Positions 2,416 to 51,324 of a stretch of 64,000 bases of DNA are shown here, piece after piece. The stretch is taken from the NCBI GenBank assembly GCA_039621445.1, contig CP154954.1:37929703-37993702 (forward strand), written 5' to 3'. A model generated the notes under the pieces. It saw only the letters and a program-made list of their open reading frames with translations. It searched no databases and was not told the DNA's origin. Source of the stretch: Euglena gracilis (taxonomy: Eukaryota). Within the stretch, counting starts at the first letter, position 1; each line of letters starts with the position of its first letter. Position numbers and translations under genes: made by a program.

Positions 2416-2668
2416 CAGGGGTTTTTTTAAGACCGGGGGGGTCCCCCCCACCCACCCACCCACCCCCTGGGGGGGGGGTCCCGGGGGACCCACAAAAATT
2501 GGCCGAAAAATCGCGAAAAGTGCTGAAAATAGAATTTTTTCGGCGCCTTCGGCGCCGAAAAGTATATCCCACCCCCCTCCGGGGGGTCCCCCCGAAGGGG
2601 GGGGGGGGCTCGGCCGGACCCACCCACCCTACCCCCCCCAGGGGGTCCATGACTAAAAAAAACCCCTG
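2416..2668. mobile_element. hAT-like MITE (CAGGGG...CCCCTG)
   Basis: TIR CAGGGGTTTTTTTA / TAAAAAAAACCCCTG. Perfect 8-bp TSD TTCATGGG. Relatives at 14469, 18383 and 20594. Confidence 0.85.
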
Positions 2669-3896
2669 TTCATGGGTCAGAAGGGCCAATTATTCATGTC
2701 CCCGCGGGCCCTAAAGATACGTCCTCCATTCTCCCATTTCCTGCCCGGCGGGGGGCCAACAAAAATGTCCGGCCGGGTCCAACAATTGTGTCTGTCGGCT
2801 GTAAGGCGGGACCCCACCATTGCCCTCCAGGGGGGGGGGGTCCAGCCAGCCAGCCAGCACTTTTTTTCCCAGTCAGCAGCTCCAAGTTGGGCTGCAACCC
2901 CCCCCCTTTCCGCGGGCACCGATTTTTAGGTCAAAGTTTTCCTTCGGCGCCGAAGGAATTCTCTTTGAGCAGGTGCCATGGTGGGTGGGGGGGTCATGGT
3001 GGGTTTTGTGATCACTGCGCATCATGCAAGCCAGAGGCAACCGCTAATATGACGAGACGCACTGCTTTTAAACATTTGGGGCTCTGTGGTCACCTTCAAT
3101 TTTTTTTTTAAAAAACCAAAAAACGGTTTTTCGGTTTTTTTGTGATCCTCTTTTTTCAAAAAAAAAACTCCAGCTGTGGAACCAGACAGGGGGTCCTGGA
3201 CATCCTCAACCCTATCCTATGGACCAAACCTGTCCACCTAAAAATTCACAAAAAATATCTTTTCCAGAATAAATTGTTGCTTTTCCAGGAACCTCACCAA
3301 CCTGTCACAAATGATTTTCCAACGTTCAGGAAAAAACGGCTCCGTGGTTCATCACCAGGTGATCTAGGACGCAAAATGGATATCATCTGGATTTGATGAA
3401 TCACAAATCGTTCTGGTTGACGAACGTGCAATATCATTCACTTAAAATGTTTGTTTCAGACCTTTGTTTTGTGAAACCCGACAAAAGAAAATCTCTGTTT
3501 TCCGGGTTTTGTTATTCTAAAAGAAGTGGCCCGGGTGGCATTTCCCCTCCCTCATTGGCCAAAGAAGGGGTGCAGCCCGCCAAGGGGCGGTGTTGATGCA
3601 ACCAATTTATCCTTGAAGTGTTTACACGTCTGCACCTCACAACCCAATAGCAAATAAGCAGTTCGTGGAGGTCTAGTCTGCTCCTTGCAGTCTTTTCCAT
3701 CCACCCAGAAAAACGTCATTGGTCTCACACAGAAGTGTCCACGGGGGCTCAACAAAAATGCCTTTGGGGGTCTAAATTTCTCGTCCACCGGGGATCAATA
3801 ATTGTGTCCGTTTCTCGGGAATGTGTCCGTGAGGGACAACAAAGCTTGGCCGGGAGGGATCTTCATTTTGTCCAAAATTCCCTTCTCGGGTGTCCG

Positions 3897-4095
3897 CTAG
3901 CTGTAAGAAAGTCCCTGGTTGTCATGCAGCCCCCCCCCCACCCCACCCCAGGAGGCTGTCCTAAAGGTTTTCAAATATTTTCCACACGCTGTATAAATGG
4001 GTTGCTGGTCAGAGTTGTAAGAACCCATGGGAGTGTGGGGGATAACAGCAACTACCACGTTGGGGCGCTTCTGAGGATCCTCTGTGTCAAAGCTT
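3897..4095 (-). CDS. RRM protein, probable exon 7 (VSFDTED...); 3' end uncertain
   Basis: Completes RNP1 as KGYGFV-SF when joined to exon 6. Intron ends pair (TAGCCCTC / GAGGGCTG). The downstream peptide is not a typical RRM helix 2, so further splicing is possible. Confidence 0.5.
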
Positions 4096-5317
4096 GTCTG
4101 CAGCCCTCGCATCAGCTGCCCTCATGAATTTTGTTGGTAGCCCCCTTAATCAAGAAAACCTTCATCAAAATAAACCACCCACCCATTACCCCATTACTCC
4201 AGCATGGGGCTCGCATAGGGGGGCAGGGTATTAATGAGAGAGGGGAGGGGGGAGGGGGGTTGTCCTGGACCCCCTCCCCACTGGGCTTAAAAAAAACTGG
4301 TGAAGCGTGGAAAAATTTTTGAGGGGCTTTAAAAAAAATGCCCAAAATTGTGTTTTCAGGTGATTTTTTCTCCAAAATGACAACGGCCCTGGGGGGAAGG
4401 GGGGTGGTCTGGACCTCCCCCGCACAAAACCAACGCTCACTTGATACCCTGCGGGGGGAGTGAGGGTTCGTTATAAAAGCAGGTGGGGATGGACAAAAAA
4501 AAACTTTGACCGCCAGAATTTTCCCAGAATATTTTCAGCACATGTTGTCGAAAATGCAAAAAAAAATTCTGCGCAAAGCGGCAGAAGGAACAAATTTGAG
4601 CTTTTAGGTGGGGGATGGTCCCGGGTACTCCCTCTCCTGGGTGGATCAGACAAGAAGGAGATTGAAAACCACATTATTCCAGCCAAATCAGAAATACACC
4701 TCAAACTTTGGACCACATGCTCCCCATCCCCAATACAGCAAAAAAACAGAGCGTTTGTGAAAAGAACACGCACACATGTCAAAATGCGAGTGTTTCGTGC
4801 ATTTTAATAGATACCTGAGTCAGACAGTACACAGTTTTAGCAATCTTTTAGTCTCTTGAACCATTTGATAAGAGAGGGTTGAGCCAGAGAACACTTGGCG
4901 CATAAAACAGAGTGTTTCCCGTCAACAGAAGTCCAAAAAGCCTAATTTTTACACCCGGCGCAAAGTGCCGAAGGTTTTTGGGGCCGCACACAAGGGTAAT
5001 TAATTAGATCCAATTAGATGGTGGGTGGGCAAGGGGTGGGGGGGGGTAATGGTGGCGGTGGTGCTGGTAGGATTATTGAATTGCATTGTACCTTCCCTGA
5101 CAAGTCTGAGGATTTGAACTCACAGACAGCCAGCATGGTCCGGGAACAGAATGATCCTCCCCCAATTTATTGTGTGTGTGTGTGTGTGCCCGACGGGGGG
5201 TCATACCCTGACCTGCAACCCCCGACCGGGGGGGGGGTCGCGCAACCAGGTGCCAAAAAAACCTGGTTATTTCAGGTCAACTACAACCCCCCGGGGGGGC
5301 TGCTGCTGCTGCTGTTA

Positions 5318-6035
5318 AACTCTCCCCCAAATAATACCCCCCCCTCAGGGTCTGACTTCGGCCGCCAAAATAATACCCCCCCAGGCTTTTGCTTAAGGAA
5401 CCCGGGGGGGGGGGGTACTCGGCTAGACACTGGAAAAAAATGGACTAGCTAGACCCTCCCCCCCGGGGGGGTCCGGGGGTCCCCCCAACTGGAAAAATTT
5501 TTCCTCCAGCGCTGCGCGCCGAGGTAAAAATGAGGTTTTTAACAGATTTTTGGCTGATTTTGTTCCAAAAAATTACCAAAAAATGGCCATTTTTGGGGGT
5601 CCCCCAAAAAAATTCCGGCGCTTCGCGCCGGTCACTGGAAAAAAAATTTCCACTACCAATTTTCCACTACCATGCCCCCCCATATAAGACCCCCGGGGGG
5701 TACTGCAATCCCTTAAGCAGAAGCCTGCCCCCCCCCCCCGGTGTCGGGACGAAGGCCCAGATTTTTGACCTGAAAATGTAGGTAAAAAATACAGTTTCTG
5801 ACAACAAATTACGAAAAAAAATTGATTTTTCTGGATGATCTGGCCTCAAAAAAAAAGCTAAATTTCATGAGAAAGTACAAAAAATGACCCCAAAGGGGAG
5901 TTTTGGCGCTATTTTTGCTCCTACGGAACTCCAAAAAATTTCAAATTTTTTTTCGAAATTATACCCCCCCCCGGGCCGGGACTTCGGGCGAAAAAATGAT
6001 ACCCCGGGGGGGGTGTTATTTGGGGGGGGGGGGTT
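5318..6035. mobile_element. TA-flanked MITE (AACYCYCCCCCAAATAATACCCC family)
   Basis: TIRs flanked by TA at both ends. Relatives at 10406-12105 and 40964-41351. Confidence 0.7.
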
Positions 6036-6242
6036 TACCACTGCCCTGCCATCAGCACTATTCCCACAAACATAATACTAAAGATATAAACATTGGTGGT
6101 GGTGTTGTTGTTATTGTTGTTGATTATTCTTATTATAATTCACTTTGCTTTTATTGTTTATTGATCATTTTGACATCAAATTGTTTCATTCACCATGAGA
6201 AATTGATGATGAACTGCATTAAAGATACTTAGAGGGCTAGGC

Positions 6243-6365
6243 ACAAATCCGTAACCCTTGGATAAACCACGACTGAAATCCATTTCGACACGAATGGAGG
6301 CAATTGCTCCAAATTGAGCAAAAAGACGATACATAGCAAGCTCATCCACATTGCTGGATAAAGAC
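6243..6365 (-). CDS. RRM protein exon 6 (second RRM: SLSSNVDELAMYRLFAQFGAIASIRVEMDFSRGLSKGYGFV)
   Basis: Clear RRM helix 1, beta 2 and RNP1 (KGYGFV) pattern; in frame with exon 5. Confidence 0.92.
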
Positions 6366-6704
6366 GGAACCAGGCTTCTTTTTAAGACCGTGTCCTGGTC
6401 TGTGAACCACAGCCCCTGCCCCCCCCTTCTTTCAGGTAACCCTTGATCTTCGACACCGCATTGCAGCATCGAAGAGTGGGCGGAGGTGAGGTGTGTCCGT
6501 TAAAAACAAAAAAAATGGTGACTCCATGCTACTTTTGACTCACGTTTTACTCAGAGTCCTTTTACTATAAGCCATAGGTACGGCAGAAATGTCCAAAAAT
6601 CAGACCCTCCTGAATGTGTGCCAAAATCGGGTCGTTTCAGGAAGCGATTTCCTGCTTCATTACTCTCCTGATTTCACTGTTCTGAGTTAAATAGAAGCCC
6701 GAAC
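6366..6704 (-). other. Non-conventional (euglenid-type) intron, 339 nt
   Basis: 5' GTT-CGGGCTTCTATTTAA pairs with 3' TTAAAAAGAAGCCTG-GTTCC (14 of 15 pairs, one G-U). No terminal AG. Removal gives NLFVR-SLSSN. Confidence 0.85.
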
Positions 6705-6933
6705 CGAACGAATAAATTTGAGCCCTCCTCAGGGGCTTCGGCGCTCACCACAGGGATGTGAACTTGCTTGTTGCGCAATTGCATTGGAATTGTTGCATAT
6801 GCAAAATCTTGATACGGATCCAAGGCTGGATAGGTGTAACTTCGCCCAAGTGGATGTTGTCCACCAAACACAGATGATGCCAGGGGATTATAGAACACCA
6901 TGGGGGAGCAGGCTGGCGGAAAACACTGGCAAT
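6705..6933 (-). CDS. RRM protein exon 5 (linker plus RNP2 EEGSNLFVR)
   Basis: Open frame ending in GSNLFV, typical of ELAV/CELF C-terminal RRMs. The 5' boundary is inferred; an in-frame stop lies at 6938-6940. Confidence 0.8.
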
Positions 6934-7759
6934 CCCTTCAACCCCACTCCATCCCCTCAGAAGCACGGACTTGAAAAAGAGGAAACTTAAAAGCAGAGCT
7001 GGTGTGAGGCAAAACAGTCTACCCGTCAGAGGTTCTCAAGGACCCAAGGGGGGGGGAGTCCCATGGGCCGGCTGAAAAAAAGGTGCTGTCTGGACCCCCC
7101 TTCCTTCGGAACCCCCTGAAGCAGGGCAGAACGGGAAAGCCTGGTGGGGGGGTCCGACCCTCCCCCACCCGGGAGGTGGGGGGAGGGTCGGACCCCCCCA
7201 CCCACCATAGCGTTTTCACCAATTTTGGGAAAACGGGGATTTTGGCCGGGGAAATTTTTTTGAAAAATGAACCCAAAATACATGACTTTTTTTTATGGAA
7301 AACCACATGTTTTTTTCACAAAAAAATCTCGAAAATTTCAGGTTTAAAAATTTTACAAGAGAAGTGTGGAAAAAAAAACGAAGGTCAAAAAAAAATTGGT
7401 CAAAATTTTTTTGGCACACTCGAATTTTACTGAAATTTTTTTCTTTGAAATTTTTGGATTTTCAATGGCATTTTTTTGCTTCAAAAACCTCTCAAAATCA
7501 AAATTTTGAGAAAATGTTGAAATTTTGGAAGGTGTGAAAAAATGGGGGTTTGGGGGTTTTGTAACCTGCGACTGAGGGGTGGTCGTAAATGAGGGGTGGT
7601 TGAAATACAAAGGGGGGGCAGGTGATGTGAGGGATCAGAGAGAAAGGACCAAAACAATTTCAGTACCCAAGGCGGTTTTGAACCATTGGTCAAAATTTAT
7701 CCCCAAAATGACAATTCTATCATAAATACTCAGTCGATGCCGGGGGGGGGGGGTTGCAG

Positions 7760-7844
7760 TCCTGCTGGAAACTGGAAGCTGCTGGCAAGGGGTAATCAAT
7801 AATTGGCGTTCATAAATGGGGGCCATTCTGGCTTCAGGAATCCC
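7760..7844 (-). CDS. RRM protein candidate exon 4 (GIPEARMAPIYERQLLITPCQQLPVSSR)
   Basis: Acceptor CCTTCCAG in phase 0, compatible with exon 3. Unique sequence between repeats. No homology support. Confidence 0.45.
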
Positions 7845-8114
7845 CTGGAAGGCATGTAGAATTGTGGGTTTGCGTCGCGAAAATTTCTCTTCTTTGAAAT
7901 AAACAGCATCCCCACGAATGCAAGCGTTGAAAAAATGAATGCAAAAAAAACAGATGTCCTTCCTGCGATCATTCAATTTGGCCAAACGACGCCCCCGTGA
8001 CGCCTGCAACTGAGGGGGAAAGGGGGAAAATGCCTGCAGCTGAGGGGGCCCCCAGGATTTTCTTGAGGCCCGGGGGGTCCTGTGGGAGGGCTGCTGGAAG
8101 AAAGGTGCTGGCTG

Positions 8115-9317
8115 GGCTCCGTGCGGATTCCTGGGGGTGTTCATCCTGGGGGTGATGCCGACCTGTGGTCGGCCCGACCCCTGTTGGTGGGATACCGACC
8201 TCTGGGGTCGGGCCGACCTGGTCGGTCCGACCCCCAGAAATCCGCATTACCCCCCCACCTTTTGGAAAATTAAGCTCCCCCCCCTTCGTTTGAATAGGTG
8301 AATTGTTATGTGAGGTAAAAATTTAATTAAAAAAATGAAAAAAACCCCTTTTATCTGCCAACCCCTTTCATTAACAAAATAAACCCCGTTTATCCGCCAA
8401 CCCCTTTTCGGGTGCAAGTCGACCTAACCCTATCCCTTTCGTTAACAAAATAAACCCCTTTTATCCGCCAACCCCTTCTCGGGTGCAAGTCGACCTAACC
8501 CTATCCCTTTCATTAACAAAATAAACCCCTTTTATCTGCCAACCCCTTTTCGGGTGCAAGTCGACCTAACCCTATCCCTTTCATTAACAAAATAAACCCC
8601 TTTCATCTGCCAACCCCTTTTCGGGTGCAAGTCGACCTAACCCTATCCCTTTCGTTAACAAAATAAACCCCTTTTATCCGCCAACCCCTTCTCGGGTGCA
8701 AGTCGACCTAACCCTATCCCTTTCATTAACAAAATAAACCCCTTTCATCTGCCAACCCCTTTTCGGGTGCATGTTGATCTCGTCTTTTGGAAACCCGGGG
8801 GGGGGAGCATAAATTCCCAAGTCGACCTAAACCATCCCTTTTATTAACAAAATAAACCCCTTTTATCTGCCAACCCCTTCTCGGGTGCAAGTCGACCTAA
8901 CCCTATCCCTTTCATTAACAAAATAAACCCCTTTCACCCCTTCTCGGGTGCAAGTCGACCTAACCCTATCCCTTTCATTAACAAAATAAACCCCGTTTAT
9001 CTGCCAACCCCTTCTAGGGTGCAAGTCGACCTAACCCTATCCCTTTCATTAACAAAATAAACCCCTTTTATCTGCCAACCCCTTTTCGGGTGCATGTTGA
9101 TCTCGTCTTTTGGAAACCCGGGGGGGGGGGGCTTAAATTTCCAAAGAGGGGGGGGGGTAATGCAGATTTCTGGGGGTGATACCGACCTGGTCGGCATCAC
9201 CCCCAGGGGTAGTTACCGACCTGGTCAGCCCGACCATGGTCGGGCCGACCAGGTGGTCGGGCCGACCAGGTCGGCATCACCCCCAGGATGGTCACCCCCA
9301 GGAATCCGCCCGGGGCC
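8115..9317. mobile_element. Mutator-like TIR element carrying a minisatellite
   Basis: TIR GGCTCCGTGCGGATTCCTGGGGG / CCCCCAGGAATCCGCCCGGGGCC. Perfect 9-bp TSD TGCTGGCTG at 8106-8114 and 9318-9326. Confidence 0.85.
8342..9092. repeat. 71-bp tandem repeat, about 10 units
   Basis: TTAACAAAATAAACCCC recurs at 8371, 8442, 8513, 8584, 8655, 8726 and beyond. The unit contains GTCGACCTAACCCTATCCC. Confidence 0.95.
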
Positions 9318-9929
9318 TGCTGGCTGGGCCGGCTGGCTGGGAGCTGGACTCAGCAGGTATCCAAAAAGTGCCCAAAAACACCCAAATCCAGCTGGGTTGG
9401 CATTACTCAGCCAAATTTTGAGGTGAAGGCCCAAAAAACCACCCAAAAATGAAATTCTGGGCCATTTTTGACCCGTTTCCAAAATTTTCGGCTGCTTGTG
9501 CCGAAATCATTTTCAATAAAGCCTGGTTTTGGAAGGAGGGGACCCTGCCTGCCCCAATGTGTTCGACCCACAATCTTGGAAGGCACATTTGAATGGGAGA
9601 AGACGGTGGATGGGCAGGGTATAAAATGAGATGGGGAGGAGGGGGTTCTGGAACCCTCCCCCAGAGGGGGTGAGTCAGCCCCCTCCCAGAGCAAAAAAAT
9701 TCAGCACAAAATGCCAGAAAATCTTTGGGCCTTGAAAAAAGCCCAAAGGTGAGTGGCTTGGGTGGACCAAAAAAAGGCAACAACCAAAACAGTATTTCAT
9801 TGCTGTTATAATCGTGGTGAACAGCAGCATTATGGAGTCAAAAAGAATGCTTTTAAATGAATTTTCCCAAATACTCAACGGCATTGTTTTTTGAAAAATG
9901 GTGATTGTTCAAAAGGAAAAAGTGCCAAC

Positions 9930-9999
9930 CTTCGTATTGGCTTCTGTTTCATGGCTGGTGGCCTTGGTCAGTGGATGTTTCTTTTTAAAAAAAATTGAA
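9930..9999 (-). CDS. RRM protein candidate exon 3 (SIFFKKKHPLTKATSHETEANTK)
   Basis: Pyrimidine-rich tract ending TGCCTGCAG, donor AAG|GTTGGC. Phases are compatible with both neighbours. Confidence 0.45.
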
Positions 10000-10168
10000 C
10001 TGCAGGCAATCAGAAGGGGCACAGGGCAACCAGCAAGGCAAGACAACGATGAATGGGCGGGGGGGGGGGGGAATGGAGAGCAGGAGGGAGATGAAAAAGC
10101 TGGGGCAGGATACAGAAGCATGTCCCCATTTTGAAAACCATCAAATGAAATCTGACAAAGAGAAACAC

Positions 10169-10331
10169 TCGCAAGATTGTGAGTTGTCGTGTGCCTGCTG
10201 CTTTCGCAGCTTGGATCGAGGATTGTCAGCTGGCTTCAATTCCAAAGGTTTATCATGCCCCTCAATGTATGTGCCATTCAATGCTTTGATGCAATTATCA
10301 GCATCCTCAGCCGCTGTGAATTCAATGAGTC
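10169..10331 (-). CDS. RRM protein exon 2 (LIEFTAAEDADNCIKALNGTYIEGHDKPLELKPAD...)
   Basis: Supplies the missing C-terminal half of the first RRM; absent from the ORF track. The 3' boundary (GA|GTGTTT) is tentative. Confidence 0.88.
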
Positions 10332-10405
10332 CATATCACACCATTGTCCCCAACATGGGTGGATGGAATGGAGGTAGACTCCAAAATGTCTTCCTATGCG
10401 AGCTA

Positions 10406-12105
10406 AACCCCCCCAGATAATACCCCCCCCGGGGGATTATTTTTTTCGCCCGAAGTCCCGGCCCGAGGGGGGGGGGGCTCCCGGATCTGGCATGGGGGGG
10501 GGGGGTTGTGGGGATCGACCATGGTCGGCCCACGGTTGCCTCGGTCGCCCTCAGCTGCCCTCGGTCGTGGGGGGGTCGACCGAGAAGGTTGTGGGGGTCG
10601 ACCGAGGGCGACCATGGTCGACCCCCACCCCACAGACGGACCCCCCCTTTTTTGCAAGGTTGGTCGCCCTCGGTCGACCCACACAACATGACCGTCCATG
10701 TTCGCAGGCCCCAAGACAAACAAAAATTTTTCAATCCATTTTGGGAGGCAAATCCCCTTTGTTGCCCAACTGTCTGCCCAAATCCCTTGTGTTACCCACC
10801 CGTTTTCCGGGGCAAATCCCTTTTTGTTGCTCAACTGTTTGAGGGCCCCAAAAAAACAAAATCCCTTATGTTAGCCACCTGACAGGTGGGAAACACAAGG
10901 ATTTGTTATTTTGGGGCCCTCGGACAGTTGAGCAACAAAGGGGATTTGCCCCCCAAAACTTGAGGGTAACACAAGGGGATTTGTTATTTCGGGGCCCTCA
11001 AACAGTTGAGCAATAAAGGGTATTTGCCCCCCAAAATGGGTGGGTAACACAAGGGATTTGCTCCTCAAAACGGGTGGGGAACACAGGGGCAAATTCCCCT
11101 TGTTGCTCAACTGTTCAAGGGCCCCAAAATAACAAAATCCCTTGTGTTACCCACCATACATCTCTTCAAGGACCCCGGGGGGGTGCTGGGCTAGGGCTAG
11201 AAATTTGGGCTGGCTAGAAATTTGGGCTGGCTAGCCCGCCCCCCCCCCCGTGGGGGGGGGGGGGGGCTGGGCCCCGGCTGGACCCGAACCGGGGCGAGCT
11301 GGACTGAAATCGGAAAAATGCCCAAAAATGACCTGCAGAACACAGTTTTGAAAAAATGATGCATCTGAAACCCCCCAAAATGCCCCAAACGCCCAAACCC
11401 CATTTTTGGCCACTTTTGAACACAATTTTTCAAAAAATTTCGGCGCTTTGCGCCGAAAAATTTTGGGCTGGACCCCAAAAAAAGGAGCAGGCTAGCTGGG
11501 CTAGCAGCACCCCCCCCCGGGGGGGTCCCAAATCGGGGCTGGCTGCAGCCGCCCCCCCCCCCCCGGGGGGGTTCGCAAAACCTTAGAGAGATGTATGTTA
11601 CCCACCCCCTTTGTGGGGGTCGACCGAGGGCGACCGACCTTGGAAAGGGGGGGGTCCGGCTGTGGGGTGGGAGTCGACCATGGTCGCCCTCGGTCGACCC
11701 CCACAACCGCAGCTCGGTCGCCCTCGGTCCCCCACACGACCGAGGCGACCGCGGGCCGACCATGGTCGACCCCCACAACCCCCCCCAGGCCAAATCTACC
11801 CCCCCCCCCGAGGGGGGGTATTATTTGGGAGGGGTATTATTTCCCAAAAATTTTCAAAATTTTTTCAAGTCCCCCAAAACCCAAAATAGCACCCAAAACC
11901 CCCTTTGGGGTCATTTTTTGTCCTTTCTCAAAAAATTTAGCATTTTTGGAGGGCAGATGATCGCAATTTGTTGTCAGAGATTGTGATTCTTACCCAAATT
12001 TTCAGTCAAATTCCGGGTCGTCGGCCCAAGATTTGGGGGGGGGTATTAATTCGGTGGCCGAAGTCGGACCCCGAGGGGGGGAGGGTATTATTCGGGGGGA
12101 GGGTT
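10406..12105. mobile_element. TA-flanked MITE containing a nested 9-bp-TSD element (10471-11806)
   Basis: Outer TIRs as in the 5318 element. Inner element is flanked by CCCGAGGGG and related to 35605-35922. Confidence 0.65.
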
Positions 12106-12538
12106 TAATCCACCTGGGATTCTGGGGTCTGATTTTTGGGAAGAGTGCACGTTTTGGATTTTTTTTGTTGAAAATTTTGGATTACAGCTTTGGCCTGATG
12201 CCAGCAATTTGGCCCACAGTGTGCCAGAATTCTGGCCACTTCCACCATGAATAAATGAAACCAACACATCCCCTCGCAATTGGAAAAAAGGGGGGGAAAT
12301 GCCGAAAATTTTGTTTAGTCTTGGCCTTTCCATCAAATTTTGGAGGTCTCATTATATTGTTTGGATCCGGGTTGTGGGGGGGGGGGTCACGGGGATGAAA
12401 AACCCCATCCTATTAACCATTTTTTTTGAAAAAAAATGCGATTGTTTTGTTGTTTTGATTTTTGTGAATTTTGTTTTTTGGTGCTTTTAAGATTCAGTTT
12501 TCGAGTTTTGGGAATTTTCAGCAGTTTGGGGCTCTAGG

Positions 12539-13619
12539 CGGTAGACTGGGGGGGGTCCTGGGTGGTCGGCCGACTAGGCCTGGTCGGCAGCTAGTCGGCG
12601 AGACAGGGGGGGGGGTCCTGGGTGGTCGGCCGACTAGTCGGCCGACCACCCACTCTAATGTAGTTACGGGCCAGTCTCGCCGACTTTTTATGAAGAAAAT
12701 TGTATGCAAACTAGTCGGTGGCTAGTCGGTGGTCATAAAAATGGTCTGTGGCAGGTCCAAACCACCCGGAAATGGTCCGGATGGGTCCAAATAAGTGCCT
12801 TACACCAACAGGAACACCCTCAGATGGAAATCTTTGGTCAATGGGGGGTCGGTGGGCCCTTGATGGGGTCTGGAGGGGTAAAAAACCAATGACGAAACAG
12901 GGATTACATGCAAATCCTTTAGAAATGCAAGCATTCTGCATCACGACAGGCTGAAAACTCCCCCCTCCACCCCCCACCCGAGCCCAGATAACAAAATCCC
13001 TTCTATGTTGGCAACATACTCGGGGGCTAAATCGTTTTTGTGGCTCAATTTGGCATAGGCGGGGGGGGGGGGCTCCGCCCCCCCCCCCCCCCCCCCCCCC
13101 TCAAATAACAAAATCCCTTCTATGTTGGCAACATACTCCGGGGTTAAGTCGTTTTTGTGGCTCATTTTGGCATAGGTGGGTGGGGCTCCGCCCCCCCGCA
13201 CCCCCCCCCTCAAATAACAAAATCCCTTCTATGTTGGCTAAATCCTTTTTGTGCAAATTTTGACTTATATATTGAAAATCCAACGGGGAGAAGTGTTCTT
13301 TTCCCAAAAGTGGCCCAAAATGGACATTTTGCCCCCAGTTTTTTTGCATATTCACCCCCGATTGGGGGTTCTGGAGCCATTTGGGTGGGTTTTGACTGGT
13401 TTTGGGTGATTTGGACAAAAGTTTTTTCTCAGGGGGGGGGGCTTAAAAGTCGGCGAGACTGGCCCGTAACTACATTAGAGTGGGTGACTAGTCGGCCGAC
13501 CACCCAGGACCCCCCCCCCTGTCTCGCCGACTAGCTGCCGACCAGGCCTAGTCGGCCGACCAATTGAGTGGTCGGCCGACTAGTCGGCCGACCACCCAGG
13601 ACCCCCCCCCAGTCTACCG
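12539..13619. mobile_element. Long-TIR non-autonomous element (CGGTAGACTG...CAGTCTACCG)
   Basis: ~150-bp TIRs built of GTCGGCCGAC motifs. Interior is homologous to 200-750 and 19170-19960. No TSD identified. Confidence 0.75.
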
Positions 13620-14468
13620 CAGTTTGGACAAACTTTTGGGCGAAAAACACAATTTTTTTTGCCAGGGGATGGTAACTGGCAGTCTTTTTTGGGGAGAAAA
13701 TGTTTGCAGTTGATTTTGTCGGACGGGGTGGGGTCCAGTCCGAACCCACCCCCCCACAGGGTCCGGCCAGCCTGCTGGACCCGGCGGGCGCCTCCACACA
13801 GAATAAGAGAGTCTTCGTATTTAGGCCGGCGGGGCGTCTTTGAAGAGGTATTATTTTCTATCGAAAGCTCCCAGACATTTGATGTTCTATAATCATGTTC
13901 CATTAAATGAAATATGTTCTATCATTTTCTTTCTGTTGAGCTCATCATGTCGGCCGTCCCTCTTCATGGAGTCCAACATATATCACAGCTGGTGGCAGAC
14001 AATATCTATACAAAAATCGACTGCCACTAATGGCGCCGGGCAGCCTGGCGCCTTTGGCACCTTGGGCCGCCCGGCGCCCCTGCTAAAATTGTTACTTAGT
14101 GCAGTCGATTGTTCTAAAACCTATTTCGCAGGGCCCGCATGCCTGTCTTCAGCAACCTTTAACAATTAGAAACCTATTTCAAAAATTCCCCAAAATTGGC
14201 CAAATGGAAATTGTTGCACAAAATACCCCAATATCTGGCCAAATGCCCCCAAAAACTGCTCAGATGTGATTGCCACGTGTCTACTAACCATTTTGAACGC
14301 TTTTGGGCATTTCTTATTTTCGATCCCCTAGACGCCATCTTCCCGCCCGAACCGGCGTTCTGGACGCCGGTTCGGCACAAAAATTTCTGCGCCGAACCGG
14401 CGTCCAGAACGCCGGTTCGGGCGTGAAGCCAGAGCCCCAATACGAACACCATGAAGCACAGCTGGAAT

Positions 14469-14771
14469 CAGGGGTTTTTTTAAGACCGGGGGGGGGGGGG
14501 GGGGAGGCGGCGCCCCCCCCCCCCCCCCCCCCCCCGGGGGGGGCCCCCCCGGGGGGGGGGGGGAGGGGGTCCCGGGGGACCCACAAAAAATGGCCGAAAA
14601 ATCGCGAAAAGTGCTAAAAATAGAATTTTTTCGGCGCCTGCGGCGCCGAAAAGTATATCCCACCCCCCTCCGGGGGGGACCCCCCCCCCGGGGGGGGGGG
14701 CGGGGGTCCGGCAGACCCACCCACCCTACCCCCCCTCCCCCCCCGGGGGTCCAAACTTAAAAAAATCCCTG
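14469..14771. mobile_element. hAT-like MITE
   Basis: CAGGGG...ATCCCTG with perfect TSD GCTGGAAT. The empty site is visible in paralogous repeats near 21905 and 34885. Confidence 0.9.
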
Positions 14772-16028
14772 GCTGGAATCTAAAGCCATCTGCTGAAAGC
14801 CCTTGAGAACTGCTTTCGATCTGCGGGCCGAGGAGGGGGAGGGGGTGGGGGGGGACACCCCCCCACCTAAACAATTGCGCGGTCTGGGTGATCGAAAATT
14901 TTTGACCCCCCAAAACGACCAAAGGTGCCATTTTTGGCACTTTTTGGGCAAAAATGTGCCAAAAATGCAAAAAATTTTCGGCGCAAAGCACCGGAGGAAA
15001 AAAATGACCCTTTTTTGGGGGGGTCCCGGATACCCCCCTCAGGGTCGGTCCGGACCCCCTTGGCAGGTGGGGGGGGGGTGGTCCGGACCCCCCCCCCTGC
15101 GGGCCAGGAGGGGGAGGAGGGGGGGGGGACACCCCCCCACCTAAACCATGTACGCTCTCCTTACCGGAGGGATGAAAATACCGCGCAGCATTAATTACCG
15201 ATTGGATTAATTCCGCTCCTGGGCGAGCTTCCGTAACTGGCGATCTGGGCATTTTTCTGGCACGGCGGCCGGAATTAGGATCAGGCAAAAATTAATCTGG
15301 ATCGCGGAGTGCGTTTTTTCTGTCTCACAGCGTAACGATCAGGCGTCTGGCAGGCTTTATTAAAGAGCGGTATTAATCCATTCGGTATTACTACCGAGCG
15401 GCATTTTAATCCCCCCGGTGTATCAAACCCTGGTTCTGAGGGTACCAAGCGAAAGGTCTTGGGGAGAGTTTTTTGATTGACATGCTGTATGGCACCTGAG
15501 GTGTGGGATTTCACAAATTAAGATGTCAAAATTTGGAATGCACGATCGCTGAAAATAAGCGCTGTGTGCATAATGGCTAAATCCTGTGGCCATCTGTCAA
15601 AAGCCCTTGAGAACAGCTTTCGATCGATGGGTAACATGGCATCACATTTGTGAAAACTTCAATCGGCCGATCGACATCGCCATGCGCCCAAAGGAGCCAA
15701 AAATGCTCAAAAATGTTCGAAAAATGGGTATTTAGGGCGAAATTGGCCGTGATTCCTTGAACGCCGGTTCGGGCGTGAAGCGAGAGCCCCTAATCTACGG
15801 TTTCTACACACAAATTGTGGCTGAGCCCAGATTTCAGCCTGAAAACGTGTTCAGCCAGGGGGCCCCCGAAGGGGGCCCCCTGAAGACGTTTTCAGGCTGA
15901 AATCTGGGCTCAGCCACAATTTGTTTGAAAACGTGCCTAACCACAGATGCCTTAATGGAAAACGTGTCATTGCCACAGATGCCCTCATTGAAAACGTGTC
16001 ACCCCCCCCTTTCCGCAGCCTTCCCACT

Positions 16029-16886
16029 ATGGCTAAACGCACGGCTAACTTTGTGAATGGCCTTTTGCCACCTCCCCCTAGGACGGAACTGTTCCTGGCT
16101 GCTCTCGCGGTATACCAGCAAGATGCCAAGAAGCCGAAGGTTGACCCCCTTCATGGCACCTTGCTGGCACAGGGCAACACAAAGAAAAGTCCGGCTCCGT
16201 GGGAGCAGAGCTTGCTGCTGTTGCCAACTGTTTGGAGTTTGCCAAACTGTGTCAACATCGGCAAGCCTCTTATCCTGAGCTGCATGCTTTCTTTGTTGCT
16301 TGGACGGGATGGGAGCATGCTTGTGCTTACCAACCGGGGGGGGAGGGGGGGGGTGCTATAGGGTGCCTGCCCCTGGCAGGCACACCCCCCCCCCGGGGGG
16401 GACAGGGGTCCGGGCCGGACCCAGAAAATTTTCATTGAAAATGGCCCTTTCCCGGCCCCCGGCGCCTTCGGCGCCGGGGTCGGAGGGGGGTGCCTGCTAG
16501 GGGCAGGCACCCCCCAAAACCCTACCCCCCCCCCCGGGCGGGGGGGGGGTCGGATCGGGTGCTATGGGGTGCCTGCCCCTAGCACCCCCCCCCCCGTGGG
16601 GTAGGCACCCGACTAAGCGCAAGCCTGGATGGGAGCTGGAACCCAGCCTGTTGTTCGATGAGGCGAGCGTCATTGAACAATGTGTGGCTCAACGTGAGCA
16701 GCAGTCGGGAACTTTGTTCGTTTCAGGGAATCGTTCGGCAACCTCTTTTCTTCTTTGCCATTCCCAAAAATCCAAATTGTGTGGAGCTGAAAAAAGTTGT
16801 GTGTGACCTGCGGTTTGGCATATCATTTTCATTGCCAAGATTTGCGGCGGCCACCAAAGTATGGCTCTTTTTTGTGTAAAGTGTGA
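16029..16886 (+). pseudogene. Deleted and frameshifted gene: MAKRTAN...DPLH N-terminus plus C-terminal PHD finger
   Basis: 22 of 53 ungapped identities to the 31772 ORF. 16794-16886 reads KLCVTCGLAYHFHCQDLRRPPKYGSFLCKV*. One-base frameshift near 16189. Confidence 0.8.
16316..16627. mobile_element. hAT-like MITE inserted in the remnant ORF
   Basis: CATGCTTGTGCTTA / TAAGCGCAAGCCTG with perfect 8-bp TSD GATGGGAG. Confidence 0.85.
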
Positions 16887-18382
16887 CGTGTTCCGTGATG
16901 TCCGCCACTCCGTGTCGTTGTGCTCCAAGGCAACCTAGCCTTCTGTTGTGTTGTAGAGTGCCCCCGACCCACCTCACTCGTTGAGGACCACCCGACCTCG
17001 CAAGTCGCAACCACCCGCTGATTTTTCATGACACCGTTTTTTGCTTTTTACTCAGGGTTGCCACAGATGCCCTAATGGAAAACGTGAGTGAACACAGATG
17101 CCTTAATCGAAAACGTGTCATTGTCACAGATGCCCTCATTGAAAACGTGCCTAACCACAGATGCCTTAATTGAAAACGTGTCATTGCCACAGATGCCCTC
17201 ATTGAAAACGTGTTCATGACCACGAATTTCAGGGCAGGCATTTGGCGGGCTGAAAACGTTTTTAACACTGTGTCCAGAACGCCGGTTCGGGCGTGAAGCT
17301 GCGTTTCAGAACGCTGGTTTGGGCTGCCGCCCGAACCGGCGTTCTGGACACAGTTTTCGTATCAGAAACCCATACAGTGGTTTTTTTGTTGTTTTCACGG
17401 CGCCCCTCTGAAAGCCATTTAAACCGGCGTTTGAGACGCCGGGTTCAGGACAGAACCGGCGTCCCCCCCCCACGGGTTTTCCGGACGCCGGACAGAACCG
17501 GCGTCCGCCACCCCTTTTGCAGTATATGCAAACGGGCGCCTGTCTTGAAAACCGTTCGACCTTTTGTGAAATCTCTTATTTGCCTCGTCATCCTTCTTTA
17601 AAGCTGTGAAGTGTGCAATGTTCGGTGGCACTGTGTGTGGATCTCCGACATCCACCCAGCTTTGGGTGGATGTGCGAGGGCTGTCGCGGCGCTATGTAGT
17701 TGTTCAGTTTCCGTTGTGATCCTGGTTGTGATTGTGCCCTGGTGATTTTTGTCTTTTGTCTGTCACGTTTCTGTCATTAACCCTATTTCAGCTCTTGTTG
17801 AGCTCTGGGGCACCAGGTCCCCACACATTCTTTTGTGCCTTCAATTGTGGGTTCACTAGGGTGGTGACATTCGTGAAAAGTGGTCGGAAAGAAAAGTAAA
17901 AGGTCGTGAAATTTCATGAAATTTCAGGGGCCGGAAATTTCAGTCACGACCCTGGGATTCACAGATCCTTTTGTGGCTTCAATCAGTTACCAGCTGCCTA
18001 CATCCCACGGGCGCCTGTCTTGAAAACCGTTTCATACAAACGGGCGCTTGGTCTTGCAAAGCCGCCCAGAACGCCGCCCGCCACTGCGGGCCGCCGGCCT
18101 GTACGGCCTGCCTCCTCAATATGCTCCCATCCCACGTGGAAAGTGGAATGTGCCAATAGTTAGAAGCCAGCACCTTTCTTCCAGCTGGGAGTCATGGTGG
18201 TGCAAACGCAAATTGGTGCCAAATGTTTTTTTGGTATTTATCATGTTTCCAGCTAGCCTGGCACTTCCCGTTTTTAAGACATGGATCGGAGAAAGCAGTT
18301 CTTTGCTTGATGGTGAAGCAAGAAAAAACATATTGGCAGGAAATCTGTTGTTTGGGCGACATCCTGTCATGGAAGCTCCACT

Positions 18383-18670
18383 CAGGGGTTTTTTTTTTAG
18401 TCTTGGCCCCCCCCCCCCAGGGGGGGTGGGGTGGGTGGGTCCCTTGGACCCCTCCCCCCGGGGGGGGGGGGGCGGGGGGGGGAAGGGCTGGTGGGTATAT
18501 ATTTTTCGGTGCTGAAGGCCCCGAAAAATATGAAAAGGTGCTATTTTCAGCATTTTTGGACATTTTCGGGCAAAAGTGGGTGGGTCCCCTAGGGGGGCGG
18601 GGGGACACCCCAGGGGGGGGGGGGTGGATGCCGACCCCCTCCCCCCACCCCCAGTCTTAAAAAATCCCTG
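18383..18670. mobile_element. hAT-like MITE with decayed TSD
   Basis: CAGGGGTTTTT...AAAATCCCTG; flanks GCTCCACT / GTTTCAGT. Confidence 0.65.
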
Positions 18671-18976
18671 GTTTCAGTGCCAAATTTTCTGTTTGTTGCA
18701 AATTTTCTGCCATTTTGCCACTTTCTGCCCACTTGAACGTTTTTGTGAAAATCAGGGGGGGGGTGATCATGATGATGATGATGGCGACGACAAATATTAT
18801 TATTATTATTATTGTTATTGTTATTGTTATTATCATTATTGTTATTCTCAAAAAATGAGGGAATTTTTTGTTGAACCCCGGAAAGGTTTGGAGCAGGCTT
18901 CTTTAAGTGAACGTCCTTTTTTGGCCCCCCAAAACCCCCCCCCCCCCCCCCGGACCTCCTCTTCCTTAGTGCCAAA

Positions 18977-20148
18977 CGGTAGACTGGGGGGGGGGGGTAG
19001 TGGGTAGTAGGCCGACTAGTCAGCCGACTACCCAATTGGTCCACCGACTAGTCGGCCGACTAATTGGTCGGTGGCTAGTCGGCGGGGGGGGGGGGTAGTG
19101 GGTAGTCGGCCGACCAGTCGGCCGACTACCCACTCTAATGTACTAACGGGTCAAAACCGCCGACTTTTAAGCCCCCCCCCCCTGGTAAAAAAAAATGTCT
19201 AAATCACCTCAACGCCGGTCAAAACCCACCCAAATGGCTCCAGAACCCCCCAATCGGGGGTGAATATGCAAAAAAATTGGGGGAAAATGTCCATTTTGGG
19301 CCACTTTTGACAAAAGTACACCTCTCCCCATTGAATTTTCAATATAAGTCAAAATTTGCGCAAAAAAAGGGTCTTATCCCTCCAAGTCTATAGCCAACAT
19401 AGAAGGGATTTTGTTATTTGGGGGGGGGGTGTGGGGGGGGCGGAGCCCCCCCCCCGCCTATGCCAAAGTGAGCCACAAAAACGACTTAGCCCCCGAGTAT
19501 GTTGCAAACACAGAAGGGATTTTGTAATTTGAGGGGGGTGTGCGGGGGGGCGGAGCCCCCCCCCCCGCCTATGCCAAAGTGAGCCACAAAAACGACTTAG
19601 CCCCCGAGTATGTTGCCAACACAGAAGGGATTTTGTTATTTGAGTCTCGGATTGGGGTGGAGGGGGGAGTTTTCTGCCTCTCGTGATGCAAAACGCAGAT
19701 TGCAGATTGCATTTCTAAAGGATTTTAATGTAATCCCTGTTTCATCATTGGTTTTTTACCCCTCCGGACCCCCATCAAGGGCCCACCGACCCCCCATTGA
19801 CCAAAGATTTCCATCTGGGGGTGTTTATTTAGGCGTAAGACACTTATTTGGACCCATCCGGACCATTTCCGGGTGATTTGGGCCCGCCACAGACCATTTT
19901 TATGACCGCCGACTAGCCACCGACTAGTTTGCATTGGATTTTGTTCATGGGGGGGGGCTTAAAAGTCGGCGGTTTTGACCCGTTAGTACATTAGAGTGGG
20001 TAGTCGGCCGACTAGTTGGCCGACTACCCACTACCCCCCCCCCCCTGTCTCGCCGACTAGCTACCGACTAGGACTAGTCGGTGGACCAATTGGGTAGGCG
20101 GCCGACTAGTCGGCCGACTACCCACTACCCCCCCCCCCCAGTCTACCG
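18977..20148. mobile_element. Long-TIR non-autonomous element, same family as 12539
   Basis: ~200-bp TIRs, CGGTAGACTG...CAGTCTACCG. Confidence 0.8.
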
Positions 20149-20280
20149 CCTTGCGCCCTCTTCCTTCCCTTTTTGGGGGTGGGTGCAGGGCACCCTCCCT
20201 CTTAAAAAAAGAACACTTCCCTTCTTTCCGGCTTTATCCCAAAGTGCCTTGCATTCACCTCCCCCCCCCCCGTCTCACAG

Positions 20281-20903
20281 TTCCGTGGCTGCTGGTGGTG
20301 GCTGGTCCCCCTCCTCACCGCCATCGGCGCCGCCAGCTGGACACGCAGGGCGGCGCTGTGAAAATGGTCAGTTCGGGGGTGGCCAGGCGATTTCCCTTCG
20401 GGAATGCACCCACAAAAACTGGGCGATGAGGATTTTCTCACAAAAGAAATCCCCCCCAACCCTGGTTGGTGAACATGTGGTAACCCCAAACGTATTTCTC
20501 AGTGCAAAGTGGCAAATCTTCTCTGCGGTGTTTGTCCTCCCTGATAGGTAGTTGCAGATCCCTAACAGACCCATTTTGGGTTTTGGCCAGAAGCAGGGGT
20601 TTCTTTTTAATCTTGGACCCCCCGGGGAGGGGGTAGGTGGCCCCCAGGGGAATATTTTTGAAAAGGTGCTATTTTCAGCATTTTTGCGATTTTTAGCCAT
20701 TTTTGGGGAAAAGTGAGTGGGTCCCCTGGGACCTCCCCGGTCTTTTAAAAAAACCCCTGGCCAGAAATGTCCACCGAGGAATGGCGCACCCCTGCCGCAG
20801 ATCTCGCCCATCGACAGCAGCCTGGCCAACACGTTGGCGTGGGCAGCGGTGGCCAGCACCTACGGCTGGCTGTGGGTGGACTACCTCCGCCCACGGCTGC
20901 TGG
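20281..20903 (+). pseudogene. Two-exon fragment of a hydrophobic protein nested antisense in the RRM intron
   Basis: Exons 20281-20342 and 20800-20903 with GC-ending codons. AG precedes the first and GT follows the second. They join in frame as FRGCWWWLVPLLTAIGAASWT-ISPIDSSLANTLAWAAVASTYGWLWVDYLRPRLL. Confidence 0.45.
20594..20759. mobile_element. hAT-like MITE
   Basis: CAGGGGTTT...AAACCCCTG; flanks GCCAGAAG / GCCAGAAA. Confidence 0.8.
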
Positions 20904-21069
20904 GTGCCGCGCCGCTGCCCATGCTCCGCGGTTGGGGGGCTTTTGCCCTGGGTGTATGGTCTTGAAAACCGTTTTTTTGGGAACGGTTTCTGCTAAAACC
21001 GGTTAATGTCAGTCGATTTTCAAGACAGGTGTCGGGTGAGATTTAAACACATATGGACTTTTCGTGAAC

Positions 21070-22010: not shown

Positions 22011-22047
22011 AAAGCCCTCAAAAAAGTTTGCCCAAAGGTCTCTAGTA

Positions 22048-33727: not shown

Positions 33728-33900
33728 CAGGGCTGAGGCATTGTTTTAAAACAAGTGTTTTTAAACAAGTTTTTTTCCTATTTGCAGTGTTTTATTTAAA
33801 AAAAACACTCTTTTTTGAAACAAAAAACCGTTTTTAAACCGTTTTTTATTCATGGAAGTTTTTTTGCTTTGTTTTAAAACAAAAAAAAACGTCAGCCCTG
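33728..33900. mobile_element. hAT-like MITE
   Basis: CAGGGCTGA / TCAGCCCTG with perfect TSD GTCTTGGG. Confidence 0.9.
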
Positions 33901-39122: not shown

Positions 39123-40053
39123 CAGTGCAGCTAAAAATTACGGAAGACAGAAATTTTGGCAAAAATACCCAAATTTTGCCATAATTTTTTATCCCGTAAT
39201 TTTCTCACTCCGTCGGTTTCCGACGCCCTCTTGTGAAGCTGCAAGCACACTGCCGGGATGGCCCTGCTTTGACTCCTCAGAGTCGATGAGGACACAATGT
39301 GTCTTCGTGGTCAGCAAAACAACCGTCACACACAAACTCGTCACAGCTAACGCGTTTACGGGCTGTTTGTGTGCTTCATTCAGAAGGATGTGTGGGTTCA
39401 GCACAAAGGGATGCTTTGAGGCAGGGCGGTTGTTAAGCAAATAAAAAAAAAAAACTCCCCTTTCACAGCACACAGCACATTCAACAAAAAGTCCAAAGAG
39501 AGAAATGACCTCCTTCATCGCCCATCCACCCAAAAGGGCAAAAATTACGTTTTGCAACGTATGTGCCACTACAGCTCGAGCGATCGCAGCCACTGGGGGA
39601 CAGAAAAATACGTTGAGCACGCAACCAAGAGAAAAATGTCGCTCACCTGTGCTGGAAGTCAATCCTTCATGGGGACCAGACCTCATTTTCTGTGCAGCAT
39701 CGTGCACCTCAGCCATTTCGGAATCTGTCAGAATGCGCCTGCGGCCACGTTTTTCATGCTCGTATATGAACCATCGTCCTTCCAAAATTTCAACCAGCAA
39801 TGAACTGTACTCCTTGCCTTGGAAGATGCAACCTCACACAGCACAACACGTGGGACGGCATGTGAATTCATGGCTAAAGAGGAGAAAAAGGAAAACTAAA
39901 ATTCCTCCTTTTAATAAGGAAGAAAGAAAAATTTTTTGGAACAAACCAGATTTTGCCAAAATTTATTTTTCCAAAAGAAAAAATTTGCCAAAAATTTTTT
40001 CTCGTATTTTTTTTTGCCGTAAATTTTGTCTTCCGCAATCATTAGCCACACTG
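39123..40053 (-). mobile_element. Deleted Tc1/mariner-pogo-like transposon with transposase remnant
   Basis: TA-CAGTG...CACTG-TA with ~33-bp TIRs. Minus strand reads KARSTVHCWLKFWK, then after a frameshift KRGRRRILTDSEMAEVHDAAQKMRS..GLTSST|VAAIARAVV across a short GT-AG intron. Confidence 0.75.
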
Positions 40054-42967: not shown

Positions 42968-43756
42968 CAGGGTTCGATATAAGAAGGGCGTACATGGTTT
43001 AGGTGGGGGTCCCCCCCACCCCCCCCCTCCTGACCCGCAGGGGGGGGTCCGGACCCCCCCCCACCTGCAAGGGGCGTCCGGACCGACCCTGGGGGGGGTA
43101 CCCTCACCCCCCCCCTATTTGGCTAATGGCCGGGCTCCTTCAGACCCCCAATTAGCCAATTAGGGGGGGGGGGACAATTAGGGGGGGGCTCGAGGACCCC
43201 GACCCCATAATTTTTGACGTGTGCAAAATTGGTCGATTTTTTGTGCATTTTTGGATTGGTTATGACTTCTTCTTATCCGGCAATTTTTAAAATTTTCGAA
43301 ACGGACGTTTTTGGAGGTTTTCTGAGCCCTTGCCGAAATTGGCCAAAGTTGGCCAAGGGAACGTCCATTGGCCAATTGGGCTAACCCCCCCCCCTAATTG
43401 GCTAATGGACCTCCCTTAAGGACCCCCCAATTAGCCAATTAGGGGGGGGGGGCAATTAGGGGGGGTGAGGGTACCCGGGCCCGGGACCCCCCCCAAAAAG
43501 GGTCAATTTTTTCCTCCGGCGCTTTGCGCCGAAAATTTTTTGCATTTTTGGCCATTTTTTGCCCAAAAAATGTCCAAAATGGCACTTTTGGTCGATTTGG
43601 GGGTCAAGAATTTTCGGCCCGGCGTTTTGCGCTGGGCCGAAAATCGGTCACCCTGACCGCGCCACTGTTTAGCTGGGGGGGTGTCCCCACCCCCCCCCCC
43701 CTCCTCGCCCGCAGGGGGGTCCGGACCCCCCCCTCCTCTCCTTTTATCGAACCCTG
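42968..43756. mobile_element. hAT-like element containing a TA-flanked MITE (43101-43471)
   Basis: CAGGGTTCGATA / TATCGAACCCTG with perfect TSD CCGCACCC. The empty TA site is seen in the relative near 15030. Confidence 0.88.
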
Positions 43757-50700: not shown

Positions 50701-50875
50701 AAAAAAGCATAAAATATGTAGGGGGACCTCCTTAAATCATGTAGGTAGAACACCCTGTATATCATTTCTGCACACCCTCGCCATGGTTTTCCAATACTGG
50801 CATATCTGGGCTCAAACCACAAACCACGTTTTTTTTAAAGCATTTTCTATTGGCAATTCCACCCTTATTTTGCAG

Positions 50876-50995
50876 GAGGTGGATTTGCTCGTCGACGCTT
50901 TTGATTACAATAAAGATGGAAAAGTTTCTTATTTGGAGTTCTGCAATGCCATCACCAATGGTCCTTGGACACCTCTGAATGTGCAGGAGCGCAAA
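50876..50995 (+). CDS. EF-hand protein exon (EVDLLVDAFDYNKDGKVSYLEFCNAIT...)
   Basis: EF-hand loop DYNKDGKVSYLE. Acceptor TTTTGCAG in phase with the previous exon. Exon end is 50995 or 51009. Confidence 0.9.
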
Positions 50996-51064
50996 GTTGA
51001 AAGCCTGAGGTCATTGTGCTCCCTCCCTTGCAGGTTAATGGGCAGGTTTGGGCACAATGAGGAT

Positions 51065-51324
51065 CAGGCTTCTTTGGGGCTGGGTGGGTCCAGGGCCGGG
51101 CTCCCATGGAGGGCGGGTTGGGCCGGAGGCTCGGGTATGGGTCGAAATTTTTTTCGCTTCACATCATACGTACATTCATAAGTTCATGCCTGAGCTTATT
51201 TGGAAAAATCGCTTAGACAACCGGATTTTCAGGGGGGTACCCCGGGGGGGGGGGGTCATGCGCCGGCTGCAGTGAGTGGAGGGACCCCTCACTCCACTCC
51301 CCTGGGGCCTTAGAAAGAATCCTG
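51065..51324. mobile_element. hAT-like MITE
   Basis: CAGGCTTCTTT / AAAGAATCCTG; flanks ATGAGGAT / ACGAGGAT. Confidence 0.75.

Follow-up and report, generated by a model that had tools for sequence, protein, structure and literature searches.

Miniature inverted-repeat elements with 8-bp target-site duplications alongside non-conventional introns in a 64-kb stretch of Euglena gracilis nuclear DNA

The introns closest to those treated here are the non-conventional introns of euglenids (Milanowski et al. 2014/2016; Nomura et al.), which lack GT-AG borders, have ends that pair into a stem, are set off from the exons by spacers of 3 and 5 nt, and carry direct repeats that make them slidable. We have compared them with one stretch of Euglena gracilis DNA of 64,000 nucleotides (contig CP154954.1 of assembly GCA_039621445.1, positions 37,929,703 to 37,993,702), called the window below, which contains a gene with two RRM domains and five non-conventional introns. 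[quoted passage not shown] Statements on cited papers with a PMC number refer to the portions of their text consulted.

The splicing code of Euglena has been given as 5'-N3CDG-/-CH'GN5-6|R (Nomura et al., PNAS 2025, PMC12501133). By experiment, splicing needs a 5' spacer of 3 nt and a 3' spacer of 5 (or 6) nt, the exon has to open with a purine for function, fully synthetic 50-bp sequences having the code and a 12-bp stem splice out of an exon, and the CGG-CTG variant, which is that of intron I4 below, was tested and splices (PMC12501133). The strict code covers 61.2% of the non-conventional introns of Euglena agilis, and non-conventional introns make up 71.8% of all introns of that species (PMC12501133). 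An intron of gapC found in one E. agilis strain only, and recently gained, has eight-nucleotide direct repeats, and an identical Y|R rule applies at both junctions (Milanowski et al. 2016, PMC4770533). Such a shared rule would be expected if the two junctions go back to copies of a single 8-mer. A review of 2024 calls the junction repeats "TSD-like", places CAG and CTG at +4..6 and -8..-6, and describes excision of these introns as full-length circles, apparently without involvement of the spliceosome (Mob DNA 2024, PMC11282704).

An origin of these introns from MITEs was proposed in 2013 (PMC3935182) and has been restated repeatedly (PMC6221363, PMC11282704, PMC12621601, PMC12501133). A sequence-only reading of the window, made by a model from the letters alone, had mentioned such a suggestion in general terms, and PMC3935182 and PMC11282704 bear this out. 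In the portions consulted, the proposals name no elements and give no TSD length; the window provides both, together with one intron end that matches an element. Introners of Micromonas, Aureococcus and dinoflagellates are likewise introns made by a MITE-like insertion and removed as the element plus one TSD, with the TSD contributing to where the cuts fall, but their removal is spliceosomal, their GT/AG borders come from the element or the TSD, and the TSD of Micromonas is 3 nt (PMC11282704). In the Euglena case, unlike in introners, non-conventional removal guided by the stem of the terminal inverted repeats (TIRs) is combined with offsets fixed at 3 and 5 nt and a TSD of 8 bp. Introners of unrelated genes also resemble one another, or a family of transposable elements, over their full length; here, with one gene examined, only the 3' 20 nt of I4 match a MITE end. 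Fritillaria borealis and Amoebophrya also have non-GT-AG introns that are species-specific, carry TIRs and TSDs and are regarded as derived from transposons; unlike in euglenids, the TSDs measure 3-5 nt and removal is attributed to a modified spliceosome (PMC11282704).

The window has about 50% G+C, numerous poly-G/C tracts and densely spaced inverted repeats, and it is euglenid nuclear DNA, because a spliced-leader-like RNA end and introns of the euglenid type were found in it. For the search of elements, CAG...CTG ends 60-3000 nt apart were scanned for a TIR of at least 10/12 and 8-nt flanks with at most one mismatch. The scan returned nine rows, of which those at 2029/2062-4411 were discarded because their flanks are low-complexity poly-C/G, and seven elements were accepted, six of them at sites already listed by the sequence-only reading. 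Together with the elements at 16316 and 18383, nine TIR elements of 166-931 bp having an 8-bp TSD are compiled in Table 1, TSD 8-mers being found, for example, at 2408-2415, 14461-14468 and 16308-16315. The seven CAG...CTG elements claimed earlier, with perfect or 7/8 TSDs, are all real, five TSDs being perfect and two 7/8, but the element at 16316 begins with CAT. The elements are MITE-like and non-autonomous.

Table 1. Positions in the window of the MITE-like elements and of the exons and introns of the RRM gene. Fractions after TIR, TSD, stem and flanks are matching positions.
Feature	Position	Strand	Description
MITE family 1, 253 bp	2416..2668		CAGGGG...CCCCTG ends, TIR 12/12; TSD TTCATGGG 8/8 at 2408-2415 and 2669-2676
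MITE family 1, 303 bp	14469..14771		TSD GCTGGAAT 8/8; within intron I1
MITE, 312 bp	16316..16627		CAT...CTG ends, TIR 12/14; TSD GATGGGAG 8/8; within intron I1
MITE family 1, older copy, 288 bp	18383..18670		TSD 5/8; within intron I1; absent from the sequence-only reading
MITE family 1, short copy, 166 bp	20594..20759		TSD 7/8; within intron I1
MITE, 173 bp	33728..33900		CAGGGCTGA... ends; TSD GTCTTGGG 8/8
TIR element, 931 bp	39123..40053		CAGTG... ends, TIRs of about 43 nt; TSD 7/8; absent from the sequence-only reading
MITE, 789 bp	42968..43756		CAGGGTTCGATA TIR 12/12; TSD CCGCACCC 8/8
MITE, 260 bp	51065..51324		CAGGCTTCTTT... ends; TSD 7/8
Exon 1	24554..24703	-	Spliced-leader junction at about 24703; ATG 24695-24693; RRM_1 E=1.1e-8
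Intron I1, 14225 nt	10329..24553	-	Slidable by 5; stem element 10337-24553, ends CAGACCATTG/CAATGGTGTG; flanks ATTTGGAC/ATATGGAC 7/8
Exon 2	10174..10328	-	RNA contigs
Intron I2, 2300 nt	7874..10173	-	Not slidable; GAG.../...TTC, stem 10/13; flanks 0/8
Microexon, 23 nt	7851..7873	-	Between two non-conventional introns
Intron I3, 975 nt	6876..7850	-	N3-CAGGGGATT...AATCCCCTG-N5; flanks 3/8
Exon 4	6703..6875	-	RNA contigs
Intron I4, 339 nt	6364..6702	-	Slidable by 2; N3-CGGGCTTCT...AGAAGCCTG-N5; flanks GTTCGGTT/GTTCCGTC 6/8
Exon 5 (second RRM)	6243..6363	-	RRM_1 E=1.1e-6
Intron I5, 2110 nt	4133..6242	-	Not slidable; N3-TAGCCCTCT...AGGGGGCTA-N5; flanks 0/8

The 8-bp duplications were compared with chance. 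Among 168 CAG..CTG pairs with a TIR of at least 10/12, seven have an 8-nt flank repeat with at most one mismatch, compared with a mean of 0.03 and a maximum of 1 in 100 dinucleotide shuffles, and shifting the flanks 8, 16 or 24 nt further out left no hit. When the length of the repeat was varied, perfect repeats numbered four at 8 nt, one at 7 nt and none at 9-12 nt. Over the nine elements, 66 of 72 flank positions are identical inside the 8-nt box, in comparison with 30 of 144 beyond its limits. Where 8-nt flank repeats accompanied other terminal triplets, they were mostly palindromic 8-mers within long inverted repeats and were rejected as TSDs; at the outer ends of eight large inverted repeats, no TSD of at least 7 nt was found.

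Several TIR families are present, exemplified by CAGGGGTTTTTTTAAG and CAGGCTTCTTT. Family 1 has four copies in the 64 kb with 66-86% identity: the copies at 2416 and 14469 are 86% identical across 213 nt, and the copy at 18383 is 66-70% identical to the others. Within the window, the elements at 42968 and 33728 have one partial relative each (77-83% identity at 14821-15163, and an end fragment of 73% identity at 30359-30451, respectively), and those at 51065, 39123 and 16316 are single. The exact 19-nt terminus of family 1 gave no match in metagenome contigs. The nine TSDs have a pyrimidine at position 3 in seven cases and a purine at position 6 in eight. This lean to nnYnnRnn, with a binomial p=0.004 evaluated post hoc at n=9, is a palindromic preference and would provide the purine needed at the exon start in either orientation.

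Membership of these elements in the hAT superfamily, to which the sequence-only reading had linked them, is unproven. The 8-bp TSD, also shared with Ac/Ds-like hAT MITEs, agrees with it, but no hAT transposase was found in the window: a Pfam scan of 10 long open reading frames (ORFs) gave only one sub-threshold, irrelevant match, neither of the two long ORFs lying in the 931-bp element belongs to a Pfam family, and the remaining elements are too short for a transposase. Since the scan found no transposase, the hAT label is drawn from TSD length and end motif. TIRs of hAT elements are short and begin with CAG or TAG, and 8-bp TSDs are also made by other superfamilies. Taking the hAT end motif to be YARNG, seven of the nine left ends fit (CAGGG six times and CAGTG once), and CATGC and CAGGC do not. 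The hAT target consensus nTnnnnAn is not evident in the nine TSDs, which lean to nnYnnRnn instead.

RNA was mapped over 4801-24800, an interval outside which five of the nine MITEs lie, by using four runs: two contig sets, X1 and X5, presumed to be RNA, and two sets of raw RNA reads, X21 and X24, chosen by species label. The two-RRM gene on the minus strand has five introns defined in this way, none of which has GT/GC-AG borders in any compatible register. One contig from each of two runs matches the five exons with 0 mismatches, and the joints of I1-I4 are spanned by contigs with 0 mismatches, in agreement with raw reads of X21 and X24 (5/6, 14/9, 11/8 and 1/7 reads, respectively, for I1 to I4). 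From the ATG at 24695 the spliced frame stays open across both RRM_1 domains, and it does so only when the 23 nt of the microexon are included. I5 was placed from a loose end before 6243, found in both contigs and in 20 X24 reads, whose 30 letters equal 4103-4132; inspection of the minus-strand frames by eye did not identify the exon that continues beyond 4132. At 24703 the contigs run upstream with ...TTTTTTTTC followed by G, next to a genomic CAG, which resembles spliced-leader trans-splicing. We take TTTTTTTTC to be the 3'-terminal sequence of the spliced leader of Euglena.

With the first stem base placed at +4, which is the register used here, the ends of all five introns pair from the first stem base (+4 to -6), with a duplex free energy of -12 to -22 kcal/mol. 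In each intron a spacer of 3 nt precedes the stem and one of 5 nt follows it, so that each equals a stem-to-stem element plus 8 nt. The arithmetic of the earlier proposal, with a cut 3 nt before CAG and another 5 nt after CTG, is thus right for every intron defined by RNA in this gene as regards the 8 nt removed with the element. The exon start is a purine in all five cases, and two introns conform to the strict code CDG...CH'G, I3 with CAG/CTG and I4 with CGG/CTG. I5 has TAG...CTA at +4..+6/-8..-6 and a stem of 8/9; it is outside the CDG/CH'G code, yet spliced. Among the joints listed, none was a back-joint at intron ends, which would be a sign of the full-length circles that non-conventional introns form once the conventional ones have left.

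Two of the five introns also have TSD-like 8-mers in their flanks. The sequence-only reading had stated that the 8 nt outside the stems are near-duplicates at the 14-kb and 339-nt introns, and the 8-mer pairs it quoted are located on the minus strand at 24554/10329 and 6702/6363; its values of 7/8 and 6/8 are correct, and contigs and raw reads confirm both joints, which skip exactly 14225 and 339 nt. In both pairs the likeness stops at the limits of the eight positions. The other three introns were absent from that reading. When the five introns are pooled, 16 of 40 positions are identical inside the 8 positions and 15 of 80 outside. The chance that at least two of five introns reach at least 6/8 is 1.8e-4, assuming a match of 0.25 per position. 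The flank signal is real and is carried by two introns.

It is improbable, in our judgement, that MITEs and introns are unrelated, with flank repeats left by break repair or microhomology at intron gain, or by the Y|R preference of the enzyme, and CAG/CTG ends convergent on a stable stem. The discoverers of the 8-nt repeat, Milanowski et al. (2016, PMC4770533), did ascribe it to double-strand-break repair, and three of the five introns here have no 8-mer likeness. The purine required at the exon start (PMC12501133) favours junctions that are alike, so that selection alone yields some junction likeness. Moreover, 84.4% of all E. agilis introns are slidable, conventional ones included. Against an unrelated origin, free-standing elements with the same ends carry exact 8-bp duplications, and four of them lie inside I1, where no selection for splicing is expected. 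In addition, four of the six matching flank positions of I4 are outside the slidable core, where the code has N.

A further point against it is the 3' end of I4. Read inward, this end matches the left terminus of the MITEs at 2416 and 14469 at 17 of 20 positions, 12 of which are contiguous subterminal bases beyond the splicing motif, and it matches the right terminus of the MITE at 51065 at 16 of 20. Among 610 window 20-mers starting with CAGG and lying outside MITE termini, the match of 17/20 ranks second, and the first rank belongs to a stray MITE end fragment at 30359. Comparison of intron ends with MITE TIRs, which had been suggested as a check, gave a match for the 3' end of I4 in this window, and I3 is at the level of the controls. 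I3 starts and finishes with the family-1 hexamer CAGGGG and otherwise shares T-richness only, and it was not counted as evidence. Local alignment of I3 and I4 with the MITEs gave high z-scores for I3 that come from G/C-rich low complexity, and these were not used.

We consider MITE-type insertions, as a source of introns that are removed as the element plus 8 nt, to be the best explanation of these data, with a probability of roughly 60%. The window carries several families of non-autonomous cut-and-paste transposons with CAG...CTG termini and an 8-bp TSD, and the introns of the RRM gene would be the same kind of object at the RNA level, their terminal repeats pairing from the first base. The 5' cut is made at a distance of 3 nt from the stem and the 3' cut at a distance of 5 nt, so that the element and 8 nt are removed; if the insertion duplicated 8 bp, such removal would take the element and one duplication and restore the mRNA as it was before the insertion, whichever way the element points. 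On this view, the sum 3+5=8 would be more than a coincidence. I4 and I1, at least, most likely go back to insertions of this type that have since decayed. Older insertions, in which the freely drifting spacer halves have lost their likeness, may account for I2, I3 and I5, or these may be of another origin.

Several points weigh against this explanation. The flanks of I2, I3 and I5 (0, 3 and 0 of 8) are at chance level, so that the proposed link between introns and TSDs finds its TSD-like 8-mer in I1 and I4 but not in the other three, and I3 has a perfect 9-nt stem with no TSD relic, so that decay must be assumed for it. I1 (CAG/GTG), I2 (GAG/TTC) and I5 (TAG/CTA) are outside the strict code. 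Likeness between introns and MITEs is weak apart from the 3' end of I4: the ends of I3 match MITE termini at 14/20, which is equalled by 27 of the 610 controls. No MITE is known in an exon, four of the nine lying inside I1, and within the mapped 4801-24800 no RNA joint shows the splicing of a MITE from this locus. The 10 long ORFs scanned include no transposase, and the intron sample is one gene. TSD lengths take few values, and the equality of 8 with 3+5 could be a coincidence.

The reverse direction, in which the MITE-like elements are reverse-transcribed and integrated copies of excised intron circles, is very unlikely. Full-length circles are known (PMC11282704), and a circle would hold one complete 8-mer at its junction. 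On the other hand, blastn of the MITEs against I2-I5 gave no hits, their interiors being unrelated to those introns, and no poly-A tails or other signs of reverse transcription were seen at the element ends. A fixed 8-bp duplication together with sharp TIR termini is the signature of the staggered cut of a DDE transposase, and this also stands against an origin from circles.

The free-standing elements were also compared with the splicing code. Of the nine MITEs, eight have CDG/CH'G ends on both strands and form 7-12 of 12 inner pairs, and the would-be exon start is a purine in 15 of 18 element-orientations, a count that follows from the lean of the TSDs to nnYnnRnn. By the published code, an exonic MITE of this kind should be lost along with 8 nt. 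The idea that MITEs act as introners is supported by the 3/5 code, by the ends of eight of nine MITEs and by the end of I4, but no MITE was seen to be spliced here. As a whole, the observation of the sequence-only reading is confirmed, and its interpretation is partly supported.

One RNA joint comes close to such removal. The joint 16306->16627 skips 320 nt, which is the 312-bp element at 16316 plus 8, and it is supported by one contig (X5), 3 reads of X21 and 14 reads of X24; a further X1 contig extends into the sequence past the right TSD. All reads over 16201-16300, however, carry five letters that differ from the window, in contrast to the RRM exons, which match with 0 mismatches. The joined RNA thus derives from a different copy in the genome, for which splicing and an empty site look the same. 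That the joint reflects non-conventional splicing of a young, perfect-TSD MITE in an expressed paralogue, instead of an empty site, is a rather doubtful reading. The skip of exactly 312 + 8, with its contig and read support, and the good pairing of the element ends speak for it; the other copy may simply be free of the insertion, and the window copy starts with CAT on the transcribed (+) strand, failing CDG.

The surrounding region, 16040-16880, gives rise to an abundant family of plus-strand transcripts, antisense to I1 and lying inside it, whose RNA lacks the 16316 MITE and one TSD. They derive from one or more other copies, with mixed letters at 16115 and 16674. A 238-codon frame, open across the joined site, contains no known domain and was not used. 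Hundreds of raw reads end in poly-G/poly-C at G/C tracts within MITEs (16336-16353, 18459-18482 and 18934-18951), and the joints classed there as "goes back" or "opposite strands" are probably artefacts of homopolymer mapping or of the libraries.

The analysis bears on the origin of euglenid non-conventional introns and on the mechanism of their removal. The interpretation is a sharper and testable form of a published hypothesis, and its new support consists of elements with an 8-bp TSD, one end homology, and the fit to the 3/5 code and to the published repeat of 8 nt. Suggestions of a MITE origin go back to 2013 but came without named elements, and the window offers concrete candidates. Nowhere in the consulted portions of the literature is an 8-bp TSD equated with the 3+5 spacers, although data on sliding distances in E. 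agilis (Fig. 1B and SI of PMC12501133) and Table S3 of PMC4770533 may be relevant; nor are MITE families of Euglena named there, or ends of introns matched to those of MITEs. The explicit link between the 8-bp TSD and 3+5, and the free-standing MITEs that match, seem to be new, whereas a MITE origin, "TSD-like" repeats and the 8-nt repeat were known. The rule is simple and falsifiable: the element and 8 nt are removed because 3+5 is the TSD length. It would account for the harmlessness of insertions in coding sequence, for the Y|R common to both junctions, and for the 8-nt repeat of the youngest intron known.

A wider generalization is tentative, and we hold it with less than even confidence: the 3/5 offsets of a non-spliceosomal machinery may correspond to the staggered cut, 8 bp wide, that one group of transposons makes, every new CAG...CTG insertion would be erased exactly from mRNA in either orientation, and most non-conventional introns would be living or fossil MITEs. 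If this is true, the target preference nnYnnRnn of the MITEs would also provide the purine with which the exon has to begin, the non-conventional introns of Euglena (about 70%) would be mostly MITE-derived and form a non-spliceosomal counterpart of introners, and the splicing machinery would be best seen as a system of transposon tolerance.

Two further structures were observed within the introns of the RRM gene. In I1, 22049-24000 consists of nested long inverted repeats, the arms of which are 415 and 315 nt and 91-95% complementary, and a TSD of at least 7 nt is absent from their outer ends. In I2, 8136-9469 is a repeat with 81-nt inverted arms and an X1 contig depth of about 27,000 and 22,000 in two bins, and this repeat is either highly expressed or present in very high copy number.

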